NCBI GenBank assembly: GCA_964459225.1
Contig: CAYWKB010000001.1
Location: forward strand, 354,777 to 418,776
Source of the DNA: an uncultured Candidatus Saccharibacteria bacterium
GTDB lineage: Bacteria > Patescibacteriota > Minisyncoccia > Phycocordibacterales > PALSA-1337
Length of the DNA: 64,000 nt
Reading direction: 5' to 3'
Positions 48,643 through 57,293 of this stretch are shown here, piece by piece. The translations under genes and the position numbers were made by a program. How positions within the stretch are numbered: the stretch's first letter is position 1; each line of letters begins with the position of its first letter. Below the pieces are notes generated by a model, which was given only the letters and a program-made list of their open reading frames with translations, did no database searches and was not told the DNA's origin.

Positions 48643-50898
48643 ATGAATAACAATATAAATACAGTTTTGAAGTATGCGGTTATTATTGGGCTTTTTATTA
48701 TACCTTTTACTCCGCTTTATATAGCTAACACTTTATTTTTCCCGTTCATTGCTGGTAAGGCATTTATGTTTAGGGTAATAGTTGAAATTGTATTTGCATT
48801 GTGGCTTATACTTTTGCTAAGAGAAAGGGGTACAAGTACAGCTGGTACAGACAGGAGTGTTGCTCCAAGAATAAATTCACTCACAGTTACTGTTACTGTA
48901 TTTACTCTAGTTATCTTTATCGCCGATATGTTTGGCTTAAACTTCATAAGAAGTATTTGGTCAAATTATGAAAGAATGGAAGGATTTATAACTATATCTC
49001 ATTTATGGTTGTATTATATTGTTGCTACTAGTATGTTTGGTGAAGGTGAATACGCAAAGAAAAACTGGAAAGTATTTTTGAATATCATATTGACTGCAGG
49101 ATTCTTTACAGCAATTTATGGATTATTCCAATATTTTGGTAAGGCAGATATTCATCAAGGTTCATCAAGAATAGACGCGTCTCTCGGTAACTCTGCATAC
49201 ATGGCGGTTTATATGCTTATAAATGCATTTATCGCACTATACCTGGCAATAGTATCATTTAAAAATAAGTCTCTGATAGCATTATATTCAGTACTATTTT
49301 CTTTGTATTCATTTTTACTATTTCAAACAGCAACAAGAGGTACAATACTAGGTTGGATTGCCTCAGTTTTGGTAATTTGTGCAATTTATTCAGTATTTGG
49401 AAGAAAGTCTAAGGGTCAATCAAATGTATCAAGAGTTATCTCAGGTTCAGTAATAGTAATTGTAATCATCTCAGGTATTGCATTCTACTTTAATAGAGAT
49501 TCACAATTTATCAAAAATAATTCAGTTCTAGCACGTTTGGCAACTATATCTATTTCAGATACAAAGACTCAAGCAAGAGGATTTATTTGGCCAATGGCAG
49601 TAAAGGGAGTTATGGAAAGCCCAAAGACAATAATATTGGGTGTAGGACAAGAAAATTTCAATTATATTTTCAACAAAAATTACAATCCACTAATGTGGAA
49701 GCATGAACAATGGTTTGATAGAGCACACAGTGTGTTTTTGGACTGGTTAGTTGCTGGAGGTGTATTGGGACTTATTGCATATTTGTCACTCTATGTATTA
49801 TCACTTGTATACATATTAAAAAGCGATTTAACTATTGGACAAAAGTCAGTTTTGATAGGACTTATTACGGGATATGGAATACATAATATATTCGTATTCG
49901 ATAATCAAACAAGTTATATCATGTTCTTTTCTCTTCTTGCTTATGTACATTCGTTTAGAAAAGGCAAAATCAATAAAGTATTCCTAAATAAAGATAAAGG
50001 TTTGACTGAAGATTATATTACCGTTAGAGATTATGTCTGTATTCCAGTTGTTGTAATAGTATTTATTGCTGCGCAGTATTTTATAAATGTACGCGCTTTA
50101 CAGGCTAACAAAGCAATAGTTAACAATCTAATATTATGTAATGGGGGTGGCAAAAATCTTACAGTTAAAAATCTTGAAATAGTATTTAAAATGGATCAAA
50201 CTGTTGCAAATCAAGAGGCTAGAGAGCAACTTATGTCATGTATATCTGGAATAATTAATGGAGGAGATTCACAACAAAGAAAGGCAGAATTTTATGTATT
50301 AGCAAATAAAGAAATAGAAAAGCAAATAGCAACAACACCAAATGATGCAAGAATATATATTATTGCTGGAAGCTTCTATAATACAATAGGGGATTATAAT
50401 AAAGCTCTACCATTACTCGAAAAAGCACGTCAATTATCTCCAAGTAAACAAACAATAGCTTTTGAATTAGCGTTAAATTATATAAATACTGGAAAAAGAA
50501 AAGAAGCAGTTGAATTAACAAAGAGTACTTATGAATTAGCTAAGGAAAATGATTCAGCTAAGGTTGCATATATAATTTCACTTATATCAAATAATCAAGA
50601 ATCAATTGCAAAAACAGAGTTTAAAGATGATAAAGAGATATTTAAAGATCCAAGAGTTATAAATGCATATCTTGCAAATAAACAATACGCTAAAGCGATT
50701 GATTTATATAAAGAAATATTAAAGTCTAATCCGGATGATCAAAATGTATATTCTGCTCTAGCCTCAGCATATCTTATGGATAAACAAGATTACATGGCCA
50801 TTCAAACTCTTAAAGACGCTGCGGTTAAGTTTCCAATTATAAAGACTCAAATAGATTCAATAATTAAACAAATTCAAGAAGGAAAATTTAATCGATAA
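48643..50898 (+). CDS. O-antigen ligase/polymerase-family (Wzy_C) polytopic membrane protein with C-terminal TPR repeats; candidate O-oligosaccharyltransferase
   Basis: ~12 TM helices with Wzy_C-like topology. The C-terminal ~250 aa form soluble TPR-like repeats (ALPLLEKARQLSP..., AYLANKQYAKAIDLYKEILKSNPDD...). Confidence 0.55.
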   Translation: MNNNINTVLKYAVIIGLFIIPFTPLYIANTLFFPFIAGKAFMFRVIVEIVFALWLILLLRERGTSTAGTDRSVAPRINSLTVTVTVFTLVIFIADMFGLNFIRSIWSNYERMEGFITISHLWLYYIVATSMFGEGEYAKKNWKVFLNIILTAGFFTAIYGLFQYFGKADIHQGSSRIDASLGNSAYMAVYMLINAFIALYLAIVSFKNKSLIALYSVLFSLYSFLLFQTATRGTILGWIASVLVICAIYSVFGRKSKGQSNVSRVISGSVIVIVIISGIAFYFNRDSQFIKNNSVLARLATISISDTKTQARGFIWPMAVKGVMESPKTIILGVGQENFNYIFNKNYNPLMWKHEQWFDRAHSVFLDWLVAGGVLGLIAYLSLYVLSLVYILKSDLTIGQKSVLIGLITGYGIHNIFVFDNQTSYIMFFSLLAYVHSFRKGKINKVFLNKDKGLTEDYITVRDYVCIPVVVIVFIAAQYFINVRALQANKAIVNNLILCNGGGKNLTVKNLEIVFKMDQTVANQEAREQLMSCISGIINGGDSQQRKAEFYVLANKEIEKQIATTPNDARIYIIAGSFYNTIGDYNKALPLLEKARQLSPSKQTIAFELALNYINTGKRKEAVELTKSTYELAKENDSAKVAYIISLISNNQESIAKTEFKDDKEIFKDPRVINAYLANKQYAKAIDLYKEILKSNPDDQNVYSALASAYLMDKQDYMAIQTLKDAAVKFPIIKTQIDSIIKQIQEGKFNR

Positions 50899-51553
50899 TA
50901 TATCCTCTACCGGGAATATTCCTTAAAATATCTCTCTTTCCGTTTGTATTGATCTTTTTCCTGAGATTTAATATGTGAGCTTCAACGGTATTTGAAAAAG
51001 GATCACTTTCTGAATTCCAAACATATTCCATTATCATACCTCTAGATAATATGATTCCTCTGTTTCTGACTAGGTATTCTAGGAGATTGTATGTTTTGCG
51101 GGTTAAATATATTTGTCTGCCATCTCTCCTAACTGTCTTTTTAATTGTATCAATTACCATATCATCGACCCTTAATATACTTTCCTCCATTGTTTTTGGT
51201 CTACGACCTACTGCTCTTATTCGTGCTTTCAGCTCTTCGAGTGAAAAAGGTTTTGTTATATAGTCATCTGCACCGATATTTAATGCATTTACCTTTTTTC
51301 TTAATTCATTATGAATTGAAAGGAAAATAATTGGCGTAGAATCACCGGTTTTACGTATTTCGTCACATATTTCCATACCATTTTTGCTTGGTAGCGAATT
51401 ATCCATGATAATAACATCATAATTATTTGTCTTTGCCATAAACAATCCAGCCTGACCATCGTGCGATACCTCTACATTAAATGAGTCTTCAGTAAGCCCC
51501 AATCTAATATTATACGAAACTTCCTTATCATCCTCTATTAATAATATTTTCAT
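50888..51553 (-). CDS. OmpR/PhoB-type response regulator (orphan; no kinase in window)
   Basis: Receiver MKILLIEDD...DVIIMDNSLP and a winged-helix C-terminus ...LTRKTYNLLEYLVRNRGIILSRGMIMEYVW. Confidence 0.85.
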   Translation of the reverse strand: MKILLIEDDKEVSYNIRLGLTEDSFNVEVSHDGQAGLFMAKTNNYDVIIMDNSLPSKNGMEICDEIRKTGDSTPIIFLSIHNELRKKVNALNIGADDYITKPFSLEELKARIRAVGRRPKTMEESILRVDDMVIDTIKKTVRRDGRQIYLTRKTYNLLEYLVRNRGIILSRGMIMEYVWNSESDPFSNTVEAHILNLRKKINTNGKRDILRNIPGRGYIID

Positions 51554-51664
51554 ACACTGATTATATGTGATTCAAACATATTAATCATTTATTTTTGTGG
51601 AAATCATGCATAATAATTTTATCAGGATTTTATCATAAATATGGTATAATGATTTATCAATAAA

Positions 51665-55796: not shown

Positions 55797-55865
55797 AGAA
55801 CTATATTTTACAGCTTTTTATTATAAAATACAAAAAAATAAATTTTAAAAAATGGTATAATATTT

Positions 55866-57293
55866 ATGCAAAATAATCACATGATTAAAAAGTTTTTTGA
55901 AAATAAATACCTTCCAATACTGACTATAATAGCAGTTAGTCTAATCACTCATTTTATTTTCTTTGGTTATCCTAGTTCTGTTGTATTTGATGAAGTGCAT
56001 ATAGGGAAATACATAATGTGGCATTTACAAGGTAGCTACTTTTTTGATGTACATCCGCCACTCGGTAGACTTATTTTTGCTTTTTTCGCTTATATTTTTA
56101 ATGATGGTAATTTCAATGTTGATTTCAATAAAATAGGTAATACATTACCACATTGGATAATTATGCTCAGATTAATACCAACATTATTTGGTATTGCACT
56201 CCCACTTGTCTGTTATGGGATTTCAAATAGATTAAAAATTGATAAGGTATTGTCATTTATAGGAGCAATATTTATTTGTTTTGAAAATTCACTTATAGTT
56301 CAATCTAGATTTATACTCACTGATAGTTTTATTTTGTTTTTTGGCTTTATTTCAATTTATATTTATTTGATTTATAGAGATAATCTTAATAGTAAAAATA
56401 ATTGGATAATATTGTACTCATCAATTTTCTTCGCGAGTTTAACATTTAGTATTAAGTGGATTGGACTTTCTTTTATTGGGACAATATTTTTCTTTGAAAT
56501 AATTTCCTATATCAAATTTGGATTTAAGAGATTTACTATTGATTCGCTTAAGTTTTCGATGATTTCATTTATAATATTTATGTCTGTTTACATGTCTATA
56601 TTTGCAATACACTTTAAAGTTTTGCCTAAAACTGGCGATGGGGATCCATATATGTCCGAAGCATTTCAAAAGACATTAATAGGTAATAAAAATGAAAATA
56701 ACAGTGCGATAATTCCTAAGGATAAATTTATAAGTAAATTTGCCGAATTAAATGCTGAAATGATAAGTGCAAATAATAGACTTACGCAAAAACACGACTA
56801 TTCAAGCCTTTGGTATACATGGCCAATTATGAAAAGACCAATTTATTATTGGAATTCTGGAGATGATAAAAGTATTATAAATATGGTAGGGGAAAAGTCT
56901 CATATATATTTTATTGGTAATCCTTTCCTGTATTGGTTTGGGGCATTAAGTATTATTGTTTTAATAATTATTTCACTGATTAAATATAAAGAAATTCAGA
57001 AAAATTATTCTACAAATTTGATTTTATTTGGATATTTTATAAATTTCTTACCTTTTATATTTATCGGAAGAGTTATGTTTTTATACCATTATGCATGTGC
57101 ACTAGTCTTTGGTATTTTAGCAATTATTATTTTAATAAATAAAATAAAAGGTGAAAATGAGAGAAAAATAACAGCAACATTACTATTAATAATTGTTACT
57201 ATGTCCTATATATACTTCAGTCCACTTACATATGGACTTGCTCTAAATGATACACAATTACAAAATAGGATTTGGATCTCTAGTTGGAGATAG
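55866..57293 (+). CDS. Dolichyl/polyprenyl-phosphate-mannose protein O-mannosyltransferase (PMT family, GT39)
   Basis: VVFDEVHIGKYIMWHLQGSYFFDVHPPLGRL closely matches the PMT loop-1 DE motif. Polytopic membrane protein. Confidence 0.8.
   Translation: MQNNHMIKKFFENKYLPILTIIAVSLITHFIFFGYPSSVVFDEVHIGKYIMWHLQGSYFFDVHPPLGRLIFAFFAYIFNDGNFNVDFNKIGNTLPHWIIMLRLIPTLFGIALPLVCYGISNRLKIDKVLSFIGAIFICFENSLIVQSRFILTDSFILFFGFISIYIYLIYRDNLNSKNNWIILYSSIFFASLTFSIKWIGLSFIGTIFFFEIISYIKFGFKRFTIDSLKFSMISFIIFMSVYMSIFAIHFKVLPKTGDGDPYMSEAFQKTLIGNKNENNSAIIPKDKFISKFAELNAEMISANNRLTQKHDYSSLWYTWPIMKRPIYYWNSGDDKSIINMVGEKSHIYFIGNPFLYWFGALSIIVLIIISLIKYKEIQKNYSTNLILFGYFINFLPFIFIGRVMFLYHYACALVFGILAIIILINKIKGENERKITATLLLIIVTMSYIYFSPLTYGLALNDTQLQNRIWISSWR

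Follow-up and report, generated by a model that had tools for sequence, protein, structure and literature searches.

A predicted Wzy_C-TPR glycan ligase and a protein O-mannosyltransferase at one locus of an uncultured Candidatus Saccharibacteria bacterium

The question raised by this locus is whether four neighboring genes form one toolkit for protein O-glycosylation or encode enzymes that act separately. The genes lie in a 64,000-nt stretch of contig CAYWKB010000001.1 from an uncultured Candidatus Saccharibacteria bacterium (the window hereafter, meaning the whole stretch of DNA analyzed; G+C content ~30%) and encode a Wzy_C membrane protein with a C-terminal TPR domain, a protein O-mannosyltransferase (PMT), an ABC exporter and a DedA-PAP2 fusion protein. 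There has been almost no study of the surfaces of Patescibacteria (Candidate Phyla Radiation, CPR), bacteria that live attached to other cells. A preliminary description of the same DNA took the four genes for a complete toolkit. We favor, at about an even chance, the explanation that the window encodes two independent glycosylation enzymes working from lipid carriers at the outer face of the membrane, a ligase that would transfer a glycan en bloc and the PMT, with the DedA-PAP2 protein recycling the carriers. Both proteins belong to enzyme kinds already known, in a phylum that has been little studied.

Both open reading frames (ORFs) for these enzymes were found where the preliminary description had placed them, with the strand and length given in Table 1. 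In the Pfam searches, for which scores are given throughout as bits against the family cut-off, the Wzy_C domain proposed for the first was recovered with PF04932 (59.9/31.7, E 3.2e-16), and the membrane domain alone reached 60.8 bits against the same model. The TPR repeats proposed for its C-terminal part were likewise detected, as several families scored above cut-off across aa ~555-730 (TPR_19 50.1/25, TPR_14 40.7/23.5, TPR_2 34.4/27). The family is large, with more than 2162 matches, 3040 clusters at 50% identity (E<=1e-30) and members in at least 591 species-representative genomes. The best 120 of these matches are 45-70% identical, nearly all ~750 aa long (the few shorter ones are apparently partial), and all of them carry Wzy_C and all but two carry TPR. 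The named sources of homologues of both the ligase and the PMT are Patescibacteria, including Paceibacteria, Taylorbacteria, Nomurabacteria, Yanofskybacteria and Berkelbacteria, and we read the chromosome as that of a Patescibacteria bacterium of Paceibacteria type.

An AlphaFold2 model of the full-length protein reached a mean predicted local distance difference test score of 89.3. Foldseek comparison of this model with the PDB returned TPR proteins only, including consensus TPR and OGT TPR domains, and the membrane domain was therefore modeled alone. Since a sequence profile of the membrane domain gave no real match to any solved structure among all PDB chains, its fold was established by structure prediction. 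The membrane domain is predicted to have a WaaL-type polytopic fold with 13 membrane helices and a large outward loop (aa 284-363) before the last helices. The even-numbered loops hold 14 Lys and Arg in 56 residues, as compared with 4 in 53 for the odd short loops. Together, the positive-inside charges and the odd number of transmembrane (TM) helices predict that the N-terminus lies inside and the catalytic loop and TPR domain outside, in line with the extracytoplasmic TPR location that the preliminary description had anticipated. The conserved linker before the TPR domain holds two cysteines, C499 and C533, which are invariant in 53 homologues and compatible with a position outside the membrane. 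Conservation peaks in the outward loops, with a column identity of 0.80-0.87 against 0.55-0.66 for the TPR domain.

The residues expected of a WaaL-type enzyme are present. Alignment of the ligase profile with E. coli K-12 WaaL by hhalign puts R232 on R215 and R312 on R288, and H362 in FDRAHSVFLDWLVAGG matches H338 of WaaL (VHLH338NEIIEAGS), both histidines standing 50 residues past the arginine. R232, R312 and H362 are invariant in 53 homologues. In WaaL, R215, R288 and H338 are functionally important and correspond to PglL R224, R298 and H349, a set common to both enzymes (PMC3643930). Additionally, the ligase has a GxG (G333, G335) after the second arginine and a second histidine, H414, 52 residues past H362.

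The setting of the ligase gene bears on its reaction. In the window it stands at the end of a ~30-kb glycan cluster, and a half-size ABC exporter gene lies divergent from its operon. The ABC exporter and DedA-PAP2 genes were both found as described by Pfam. The best NCBIfam matches of the exporter are HepA (323.6 bits), MsbA (287.9) and PglK (212.5), all below the equivalog cut-offs, and we regard it as a candidate flippase for a lipid-linked glycan. The ligase neighborhood was sampled in 80 related genome loci (L001-L080), in which all ORFs were clustered and the main neighbors were confirmed by Pfam; upstream exporter counts rest on the 63 loci with at least 3 kb of upstream sequence. An exporter adjoins the ligase in 48 of these 63, and the position held by the ABC exporter in the window is taken by Wzx or Wzm/Wzt in other genomes (directly upstream: Wzx in 23, Wzm/Wzt in 19 and an MsbA-like ABC exporter in 6, never combined). 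WaaL-type ligases take the products of both Wzx and ABC export routes, whereas Wzy polymerases serve the Wzx route only and diverge in sequence with the repeat unit. Thus a conserved enzyme standing beside whichever exporter the variable cluster uses behaves as a ligase would and not as a polymerase.

The second ORF had been described as a PMT of family GT39, and this assignment is borne out by PF02366 (111.9/22.7, E 4.8e-32, aa 22-253). A second domain, PMT_4TMC PF16192, scored 153.1/32.4 (E 9e-45, aa 288-474), and the motif quoted for the protein is present in its translation (VVFDEVHIGKYIMWHLQGSYFFDVHPPLGRLIF). Gene callers start the PMT at Met6 (nt 55881), which gives a 470-aa protein (P0121) that is 100% identical. 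In phmmer searches of the PDB the window PMT matched four solved fungal PMTs at E 1e-40 to 1e-31, among them ctPmt4 (9i5k, 9.7e-41, 143 bits) and ScPmt1 (6p25, 1.4e-39). The label "eukaryote-type" holds for the TM domains but fails for the MIR domain, for which there was no Pfam match; in the alignment with the fungal chains, ~200 residues are skipped between chain residues ~322-365 and ~531-547. The absence of the MIR domain excludes only the eukaryotic PMT subtype, and actinobacterial Pmts are generally described as lacking this domain. Against the view that PMTs are otherwise known mainly from eukaryotes and actinobacteria, homologues proved not to be rare in this group: the search gave 1241 matches, the named sources in the best 120 being Patescibacteria lineages.

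The acidic residues on which the PMT assignment depends are conserved, as D42, E43, D61, E140 and D153 are invariant in 49 CPR homologues, together with H63, R102, K197, R402 and H408. D42-E43 align with ScPmt1 D77-E78. Furthermore, H63, K197, R402 and H408 are the equivalents of ctPmt4 H105, K244, R666 and H672, the ligands of the dolichyl phosphate (Dol-P) phosphate group (PMC12705809). Six residues are essential in S. coelicolor Pmt (PMC8698208), and five of them (D113, H159, D233, K302 and R510) have invariant equivalents in the CPR PMTs. As judged from these residues, the window PMT is very likely an active GT39 enzyme.

The context of PMT genes in other genomes was taken from six single loci. 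On a Logan contig from SRR14271367 the sequence is identical to the window across the PMT region, with the same gene order (L081). On an 825-kb contig (L086, 1-5998) the PMT directly follows two ORFs of 1459 aa (cut by the locus end) and 707 aa that have no Pfam match, and it is followed by a GT87-like gene and a gene for a 905-aa PG_binding_1 protein; the large ORFs may be surface substrates. A third contig (L085) carries a LytR-CpsA-Psr (LCP) gene at 9301-10383, inside a mur/ftsW cluster, beside murB and two genes from the PMT.

A clue to the sugar donor of the PMT came from an orthologue, P0125 (52% identical), in which an N-terminal GT2 domain makes a natural GT2::PMT fusion of 694 aa. It is encoded at L083 4364-6448 and L084 4108-6192, 20 bp downstream of DedA-PAP2, and this architecture occurs in only one of the best 120 PMT matches. 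The GT2 half of a fusion protein in the window (23018-24610) is 58.7% identical to the P0125 GT2 domain over 225 aa (E 3e-82). For both GT2 domains the best NCBIfam matches, all below cut-off, are AglJ, PpgS, ArnC and a Dol-P-hexose transferase. The fusion in a relative links the window GT2 to the PMT as a probable donor synthase, and the GT2 half probably makes the lipid-linked sugar that the PMT uses. Additionally, the genes at 20059-24610 suggest a Gtr-like module using a polyprenyl-phosphate sugar for a second glycosylation step, outside the membrane, on the glycan of the cluster. The GT2::PMT fusion is a useful lead from this analysis.

The DedA-PAP2 protein has intact PAP2 motifs, KX6RP (316), PSGH (337) and SRX5HX3D (382). 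Its best NCBIfam matches are DedA/UptA, an undecaprenyl-phosphate (Und-P) transporter, and SepP/UppP-type undecaprenyl-diphosphate (Und-PP) phosphatases, below cut-off. Such fusions make up ~1.3% of dedA genes and have been read as performing sequential Und-PP dephosphorylation and Und-P flipping (10.1101/2022.02.03.479048). We therefore predict that the window protein is an Und-PP phosphatase and Und-P flippase for lipid-carrier recycling. The ABC exporter and DedA-PAP2 genes fit a lipid-carrier cycle, but since DedA-PAP2 could be used by any lipid-carrier pathway, including that of peptidoglycan, it does not point to protein glycosylation in particular.

In the explanation that we favor, the ~30-kb cluster would build a glycan on Und-PP, the ABC exporter would flip it outward, and the ligase would hand it over whole to a conserved extracellular acceptor. 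H362, R232 and R312 in the outward loops would handle the Und-PP donor, while the outward TPR domain would position the acceptor or a partner protein. Separately, the PMT would use polyprenyl-phosphate-hexose to attach a single hexose, probably mannose, to Ser/Thr of exported proteins. DedA-PAP2 would serve both enzymes by converting Und-PP to Und-P and flipping Und-P inward. By analogy, the Wzy_C-TPR protein is plausible as a protein O-oligosaccharyltransferase, and a secreted or surface protein is its most likely acceptor, as for the S-layer O-oligosaccharyltransferase WsfB, although we hold this at somewhat under an even chance. An outside TPR domain and the precedent of Wzy_C with C-terminal TPR in WsfB and PglL speak for a protein acceptor. 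WsfB has Wzy_C with a C-terminal TPR motif, PglL is reported to have one as well, and for WsaB a TPR protein is encoded next door (PMC2943079). The GxG and the second histidine of the ligase, which by counting stand at offsets similar to those of residues specific to PglL, speak for a protein too.

Several observations weigh against this explanation or parts of it. No initiating phosphoglycosyltransferase was found in the 64-kb window. The full ligase did not match PglL_A (PF15864), the motif that distinguishes PglL from WaaL, at E<=0.01, and the membrane domain and aa 381-460 matched neither PglL_A nor Wzy_C_2 at E<=10. The pilin motif [GAS]F[TS][LI]xE is absent from the window and was present in only 6 of the 80 loci, and no S-layer candidate was identified near the ligase. 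TPR domains occur in polysaccharide-export scaffolds too and are thus no proof of a protein substrate, and the very strong conservation of the outward loops would also suit an invariant lipid or wall acceptor. The hhalign match to WaaL is weak (probability 2.2%, E 0.022); our trust in the alignment comes only from its agreement with the fold match and with the motif spacing. As for the PMT, it scores 49 bits on the NCBIfam model for actinobacterial Pmt (NF058602), for which the cut-off is 800. Its probable sugar and acceptors are taken from family membership only, and the assignment of its donor synthase, which we grade as probable, draws on sub-threshold family matches and the fusion.

Three other accounts have to be weighed, two of the ligase reaction and one of the locus as a whole. 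No lipopolysaccharide (LPS) core genes appeared in the general annotation of the window and Patescibacteria are regarded as lacking LPS. With a membrane glycolipid in place of a protein as acceptor, the ligase might turn the exported glycan into a lipoglycan or a lipoteichoic-acid-like polymer. The precedent is TacL, a Wzy_C enzyme by which Streptococcus pneumoniae, which has no outer membrane, transfers an Und-PP-linked chain to a glycolipid (PMC5727136). An acceptor of invariant chemistry would fit outward loops that are very conserved throughout the family, no gene for an acceptor protein is found close by, and PglL_A is not matched. Furthermore, the gene upstream of the ligase resembles a glycerol-3-phosphate cytidylyltransferase or a heptose-1-phosphate adenylyltransferase, and a GT4 gene at 16107-17252 has sub-threshold matches to glycolipid-anchor synthases. 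We nevertheless consider a glycolipid acceptor somewhat unlikely, since TacL has 397 aa and no TPR, which would leave the ~250-aa outward TPR domain of thousands of homologues lacking an obvious role, and the Wzy_C-TPR architecture has its precedent in protein O-oligosaccharyltransferases. Very doubtful, in our view, is a Wzy-type polymerase, or an enzyme that polymerizes or attaches a wall polysaccharide on peptidoglycan or lipid II with its TPR domain docked to wall-synthesis proteins. Pfam Wzy_C covers polymerases too, Wzx stands next door in 23 loci, and, among the 60 loci on which the downstream counts rest, murB lies within 3 kb downstream of the ligase in 41, followed by secA, on the same strand and class-wide, although neither gene is at this position in the window. 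However, the gap between ligase and murB (mostly 165-600 bp) is free of conserved small ORFs, tRNAs and Rfam families, which suggests synteny and not an operon. In the 19 loci with Wzm/Wzt and the 6 with an MsbA-like exporter, finished chains would be exported with no need of Wzy, and identity within the family is 45-70% class-wide, in more than 100 clusters, whereas Wzy proteins diverge with the repeat unit. Moreover, the LCP gene in the mur cluster of L085, a related CPR contig, indicates that Patescibacteria possess the enzyme by which glycopolymers are usually joined to peptidoglycan.

The account of the locus as a whole is that of the preliminary description, in which the Wzy_C-TPR protein, PMT, ABC exporter and DedA-PAP2 co-evolved as a single toolkit of protein O-glycosylation with shared substrates. 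All four genes do lie within 11 kb of the window, the order is tighter in L083/L084 (Wzy_C-TPR, response regulator, DedA-PAP2 and GT2::PMT, with the 20 bp noted above between the last two), and the polyprenyl carriers released by both enzymes could be recycled by DedA-PAP2. Yet within +-10 kb of the ligase a PMT was found in 0 of the 80 loci, DedA-PAP2 in 8 and the ABC exporter in 7, and in other genomes the neighbors of PMT homologues are unrelated housekeeping genes. The window itself shows three separate transcription units for the ligase, DedA-PAP2 and PMT, which the genes for enolase, phosphoglycerate mutase and the response regulator keep apart. The slot between the ligase and an MFS-RNase J-SBP backbone (50888-58466 in the window) was compared among close relatives with the same backbone and is variable. 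It is empty in L003, L006 and L010; holds the response regulator, DedA-PAP2, phosphoglycerate mutase (iPGM) and enolase, with no PMT, in L009 and L016; holds the response regulator, DedA-PAP2 and GT2::PMT in L083/L084; and in the window holds the L009/L016 set plus the PMT. The ligase and PMT are near each other only in this lineage and are no conserved co-inherited system. We conclude that a single toolkit is improbable and that the claim of a complete one is not supported; two independent enzymes remain the explanation that we favor.

Table 1. Positions of the genes and domains discussed, in window coordinates.
Feature	Position	Strand	Details
Wzy_C-TPR protein, predicted WaaL-fold en-bloc glycan ligase	48643..50898	+	751 aa; Pfam, AlphaFold2 model
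Ligase membrane domain, aa 1-483	48643..50091	+	13 predicted TM helices
Ligase Wzy_C Pfam match, aa 218-381	49294-49785	+	
Ligase C-terminal TPR domain, aa ~505-751	50155..50895	+	~seven helix pairs; TPR Pfam, Foldseek
GT39 protein O-mannosyltransferase without MIR	55866..57293	+	475 aa; Pfam, phmmer against PDB
PMT DE motif D42-E43	55989-55994	+	
GtrA-domain::GT4 fusion	20059-21531	+	GtrA_DPMS_TM 64.1 bits
PMT_2/ArnT-like GT-C enzyme	21534-22994	+	PMT_2 34.3 bits
GT2::methyltransferase (S-adenosylmethionine, SAM) fusion	23018..24610	+	GT2 half polyprenyl-phosphate-hexose-synthase-like
DedA (VTT)::PAP2 fusion	51665..52951	+	VTT_dom 65.9, PAP2 63.8 bits
Half-size ABC exporter, MsbA/PglK/HepA-like	46220..48007	-	Transmembrane and nucleotide-binding domains; ABC_membrane + ABC_tran (Pfam)
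Cytidylyl/adenylyltransferase-like gene	48114..48608	+	CTP_transf_like 49.5 bits
OmpR-type response regulator	50888-51553	-	3' end overlaps ligase 3' end by 11 bp
Glycan biosynthesis cluster, ~30 kb	16107..46211		Pfam

A 34-bp gap separates the nucleotidyltransferase gene from the ligase gene downstream of it; the two share a strand and are probably co-transcribed. The nucleotidyltransferase gene is part of the variable glycan cluster. Its best NCBIfam matches are RfaE domain II (80.5 bits) and TagD (46.7 bits), both below cut-off, and it adjoins the ligase in only 2 of the 80 loci. The pairing of response regulator and ligase is kept in the 7 closest loci (at least 56% identical), and no histidine kinase is found nearby in the window. 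The glycan cluster holds ~9 GT4 genes, several GT2, GT11-like and GT47-like genes, many SAM and FkbM methyltransferases and two epimerase/dehydratases. A second polytopic Wzy or Wzx was sought in the cluster and not found, and the two ORFs without a Pfam match are not hydrophobic. Antisense inside this otherwise plus-strand glycosyltransferase cluster is a GMC-family oxidoreductase gene (29771-31342, minus strand). A gene for a VirD4/TraG-like coupling-protein ATPase adjoins the cluster (14342-16102); the protein is without N-terminal membrane segments and has a Pro/Thr-rich linker (aa ~440-500) and a Lys/Glu-rich tail. The Pro/Thr-rich tail at 15.7 kb, which had been put forward as a possible glycosylation substrate, belongs to this ATPase, which has no signal peptide or TM segment, is therefore cytoplasmic and makes a poor candidate. 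A PGA_cap protein (CapA-like, poly-gamma-glutamate capsule synthesis; 9764-10708, 188 bits) is encoded among the housekeeping genes. The housekeeping genes carried by the window include those for NusB, RNase III, SMC, RNase R, S16, TrmD, S1, enolase, phosphoglycerate mutase and RNase J, and no tRNA or Rfam elements were found in it.

The significance of these proteins lies in what they may say about the Patescibacteria surface. The ligase family, nearly always beside a glycan exporter, would mark the step that fixes variable surface glycans to a conserved acceptor, and the identity of that acceptor would tell what the sugar coat of Patescibacteria is anchored to. In the literature, PMT (GT39) is treated as an enzyme of eukaryotes and actinobacteria, and more than 1,200 intact Patescibacteria homologues widen its range and bear on the origin of the eukaryotic enzyme. 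Literature searches for PMT or O-antigen ligase together with Patescibacteria, CPR or Parcubacteria returned nothing relevant. Both points are leads from annotation-level evidence, solid but not surprising, as the proteins already bear such names in public annotations ("O-antigen ligase family/TPR repeat protein" for the ligase family and "dolichyl-phosphate-mannose-protein mannosyltransferase" for the PMT homologues). A broader proposal is that the Wzy_C-TPR family is the core, class-wide general O-oligosaccharyltransferase of Paceibacteria, its TPR domain capturing unfolded secreted substrates and the murB-secA neighborhood reflecting coupling to secretion and envelope growth. A single conserved enzyme would then attach any glycan exported by the variable cluster beside it to surface proteins as they are secreted. 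We regard this as quite unlikely; if true, then together with the widespread MIR-less PMT it would mean that protein O-glycosylation is basic to the envelope of episymbiotic Patescibacteria.

Among known systems, the ligase is comparable to WsfB of Paenibacillus alvei and WsaB of Geobacillus stearothermophilus, Wzy_C membrane enzymes that likewise work where there is no outer membrane. As in WsfB, Wzy_C is joined to a C-terminal TPR domain and the gene stands beside a glycan cluster with an exporter, a likeness of architecture. The WsfB and WsaB glycan clusters are rich in glycosyltransferases and methyltransferases and have an ABC exporter (PMC2943079), and the window cluster is alike. In contrast to these enzymes, the ligase family is far more conserved and Patescibacteria-specific, with no S-layer gene found nearby. 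With PglL and PilO (TfpO), which transfer en bloc from Und-PP, it has in common Wzy_C and the Arg, Arg, His triad. Residues specific to PglL include G316/G318 and H400 (PMC3643930), and G333/G335 and H414 of the ligase stand at similar offsets, by counting only and not by alignment. Unlike PglL and PilO, the ligase has no PglL_A or Wzy_C_2 match and no adjacent pilin gene. R215, R288 and H338 of WaaL (E. coli K-12; Cupriavidus metallidurans 7TPJ) have invariant equivalents in the ligase, and WaaL works after Wzx or ABC export, as the ligase family pairs with either exporter. WaaL differs in having 12 TM helices, ~400-420 aa, no TPR and a lipid A-core acceptor, whereas the ligase has a 13th helix and a 250-aa domain outside. 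TacL is similar in its Wzy_C domain, in the lack of an outer membrane and in moving an Und-PP-linked polymer to a non-LPS acceptor, and differs in its length, in lacking TPR and in its glycolipid acceptor.

The window PMT resembles both the actinobacterial Pmts (S. coelicolor SCO3154, M. tuberculosis Rv1002c) and the fungal Pmt1, Pmt2 and Pmt4, all GT39 proteins with PMT and PMT_4TMC domains and a DE motif in loop 1. The known Pmts use polyprenyl-phosphate-mannose made by a GT2 enzyme, and their essential and Dol-P-binding residues are the same as in the window PMT. Fungal and animal PMTs have their MIR domain between TM7 and TM8 (PMC12705809), where the window PMT has a loop of ~105 aa. Its score of 49 bits on the NCBIfam actinobacterial model stands against 143 bits to ctPmt4 by phmmer, and it differs from these enzymes in its host phylum, Patescibacteria. 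Finally, the DedA-PAP2 protein has the same domain pair as the DedA(UptA)-PAP2 fusions of Roney and Rudner and differs from them in nothing material.

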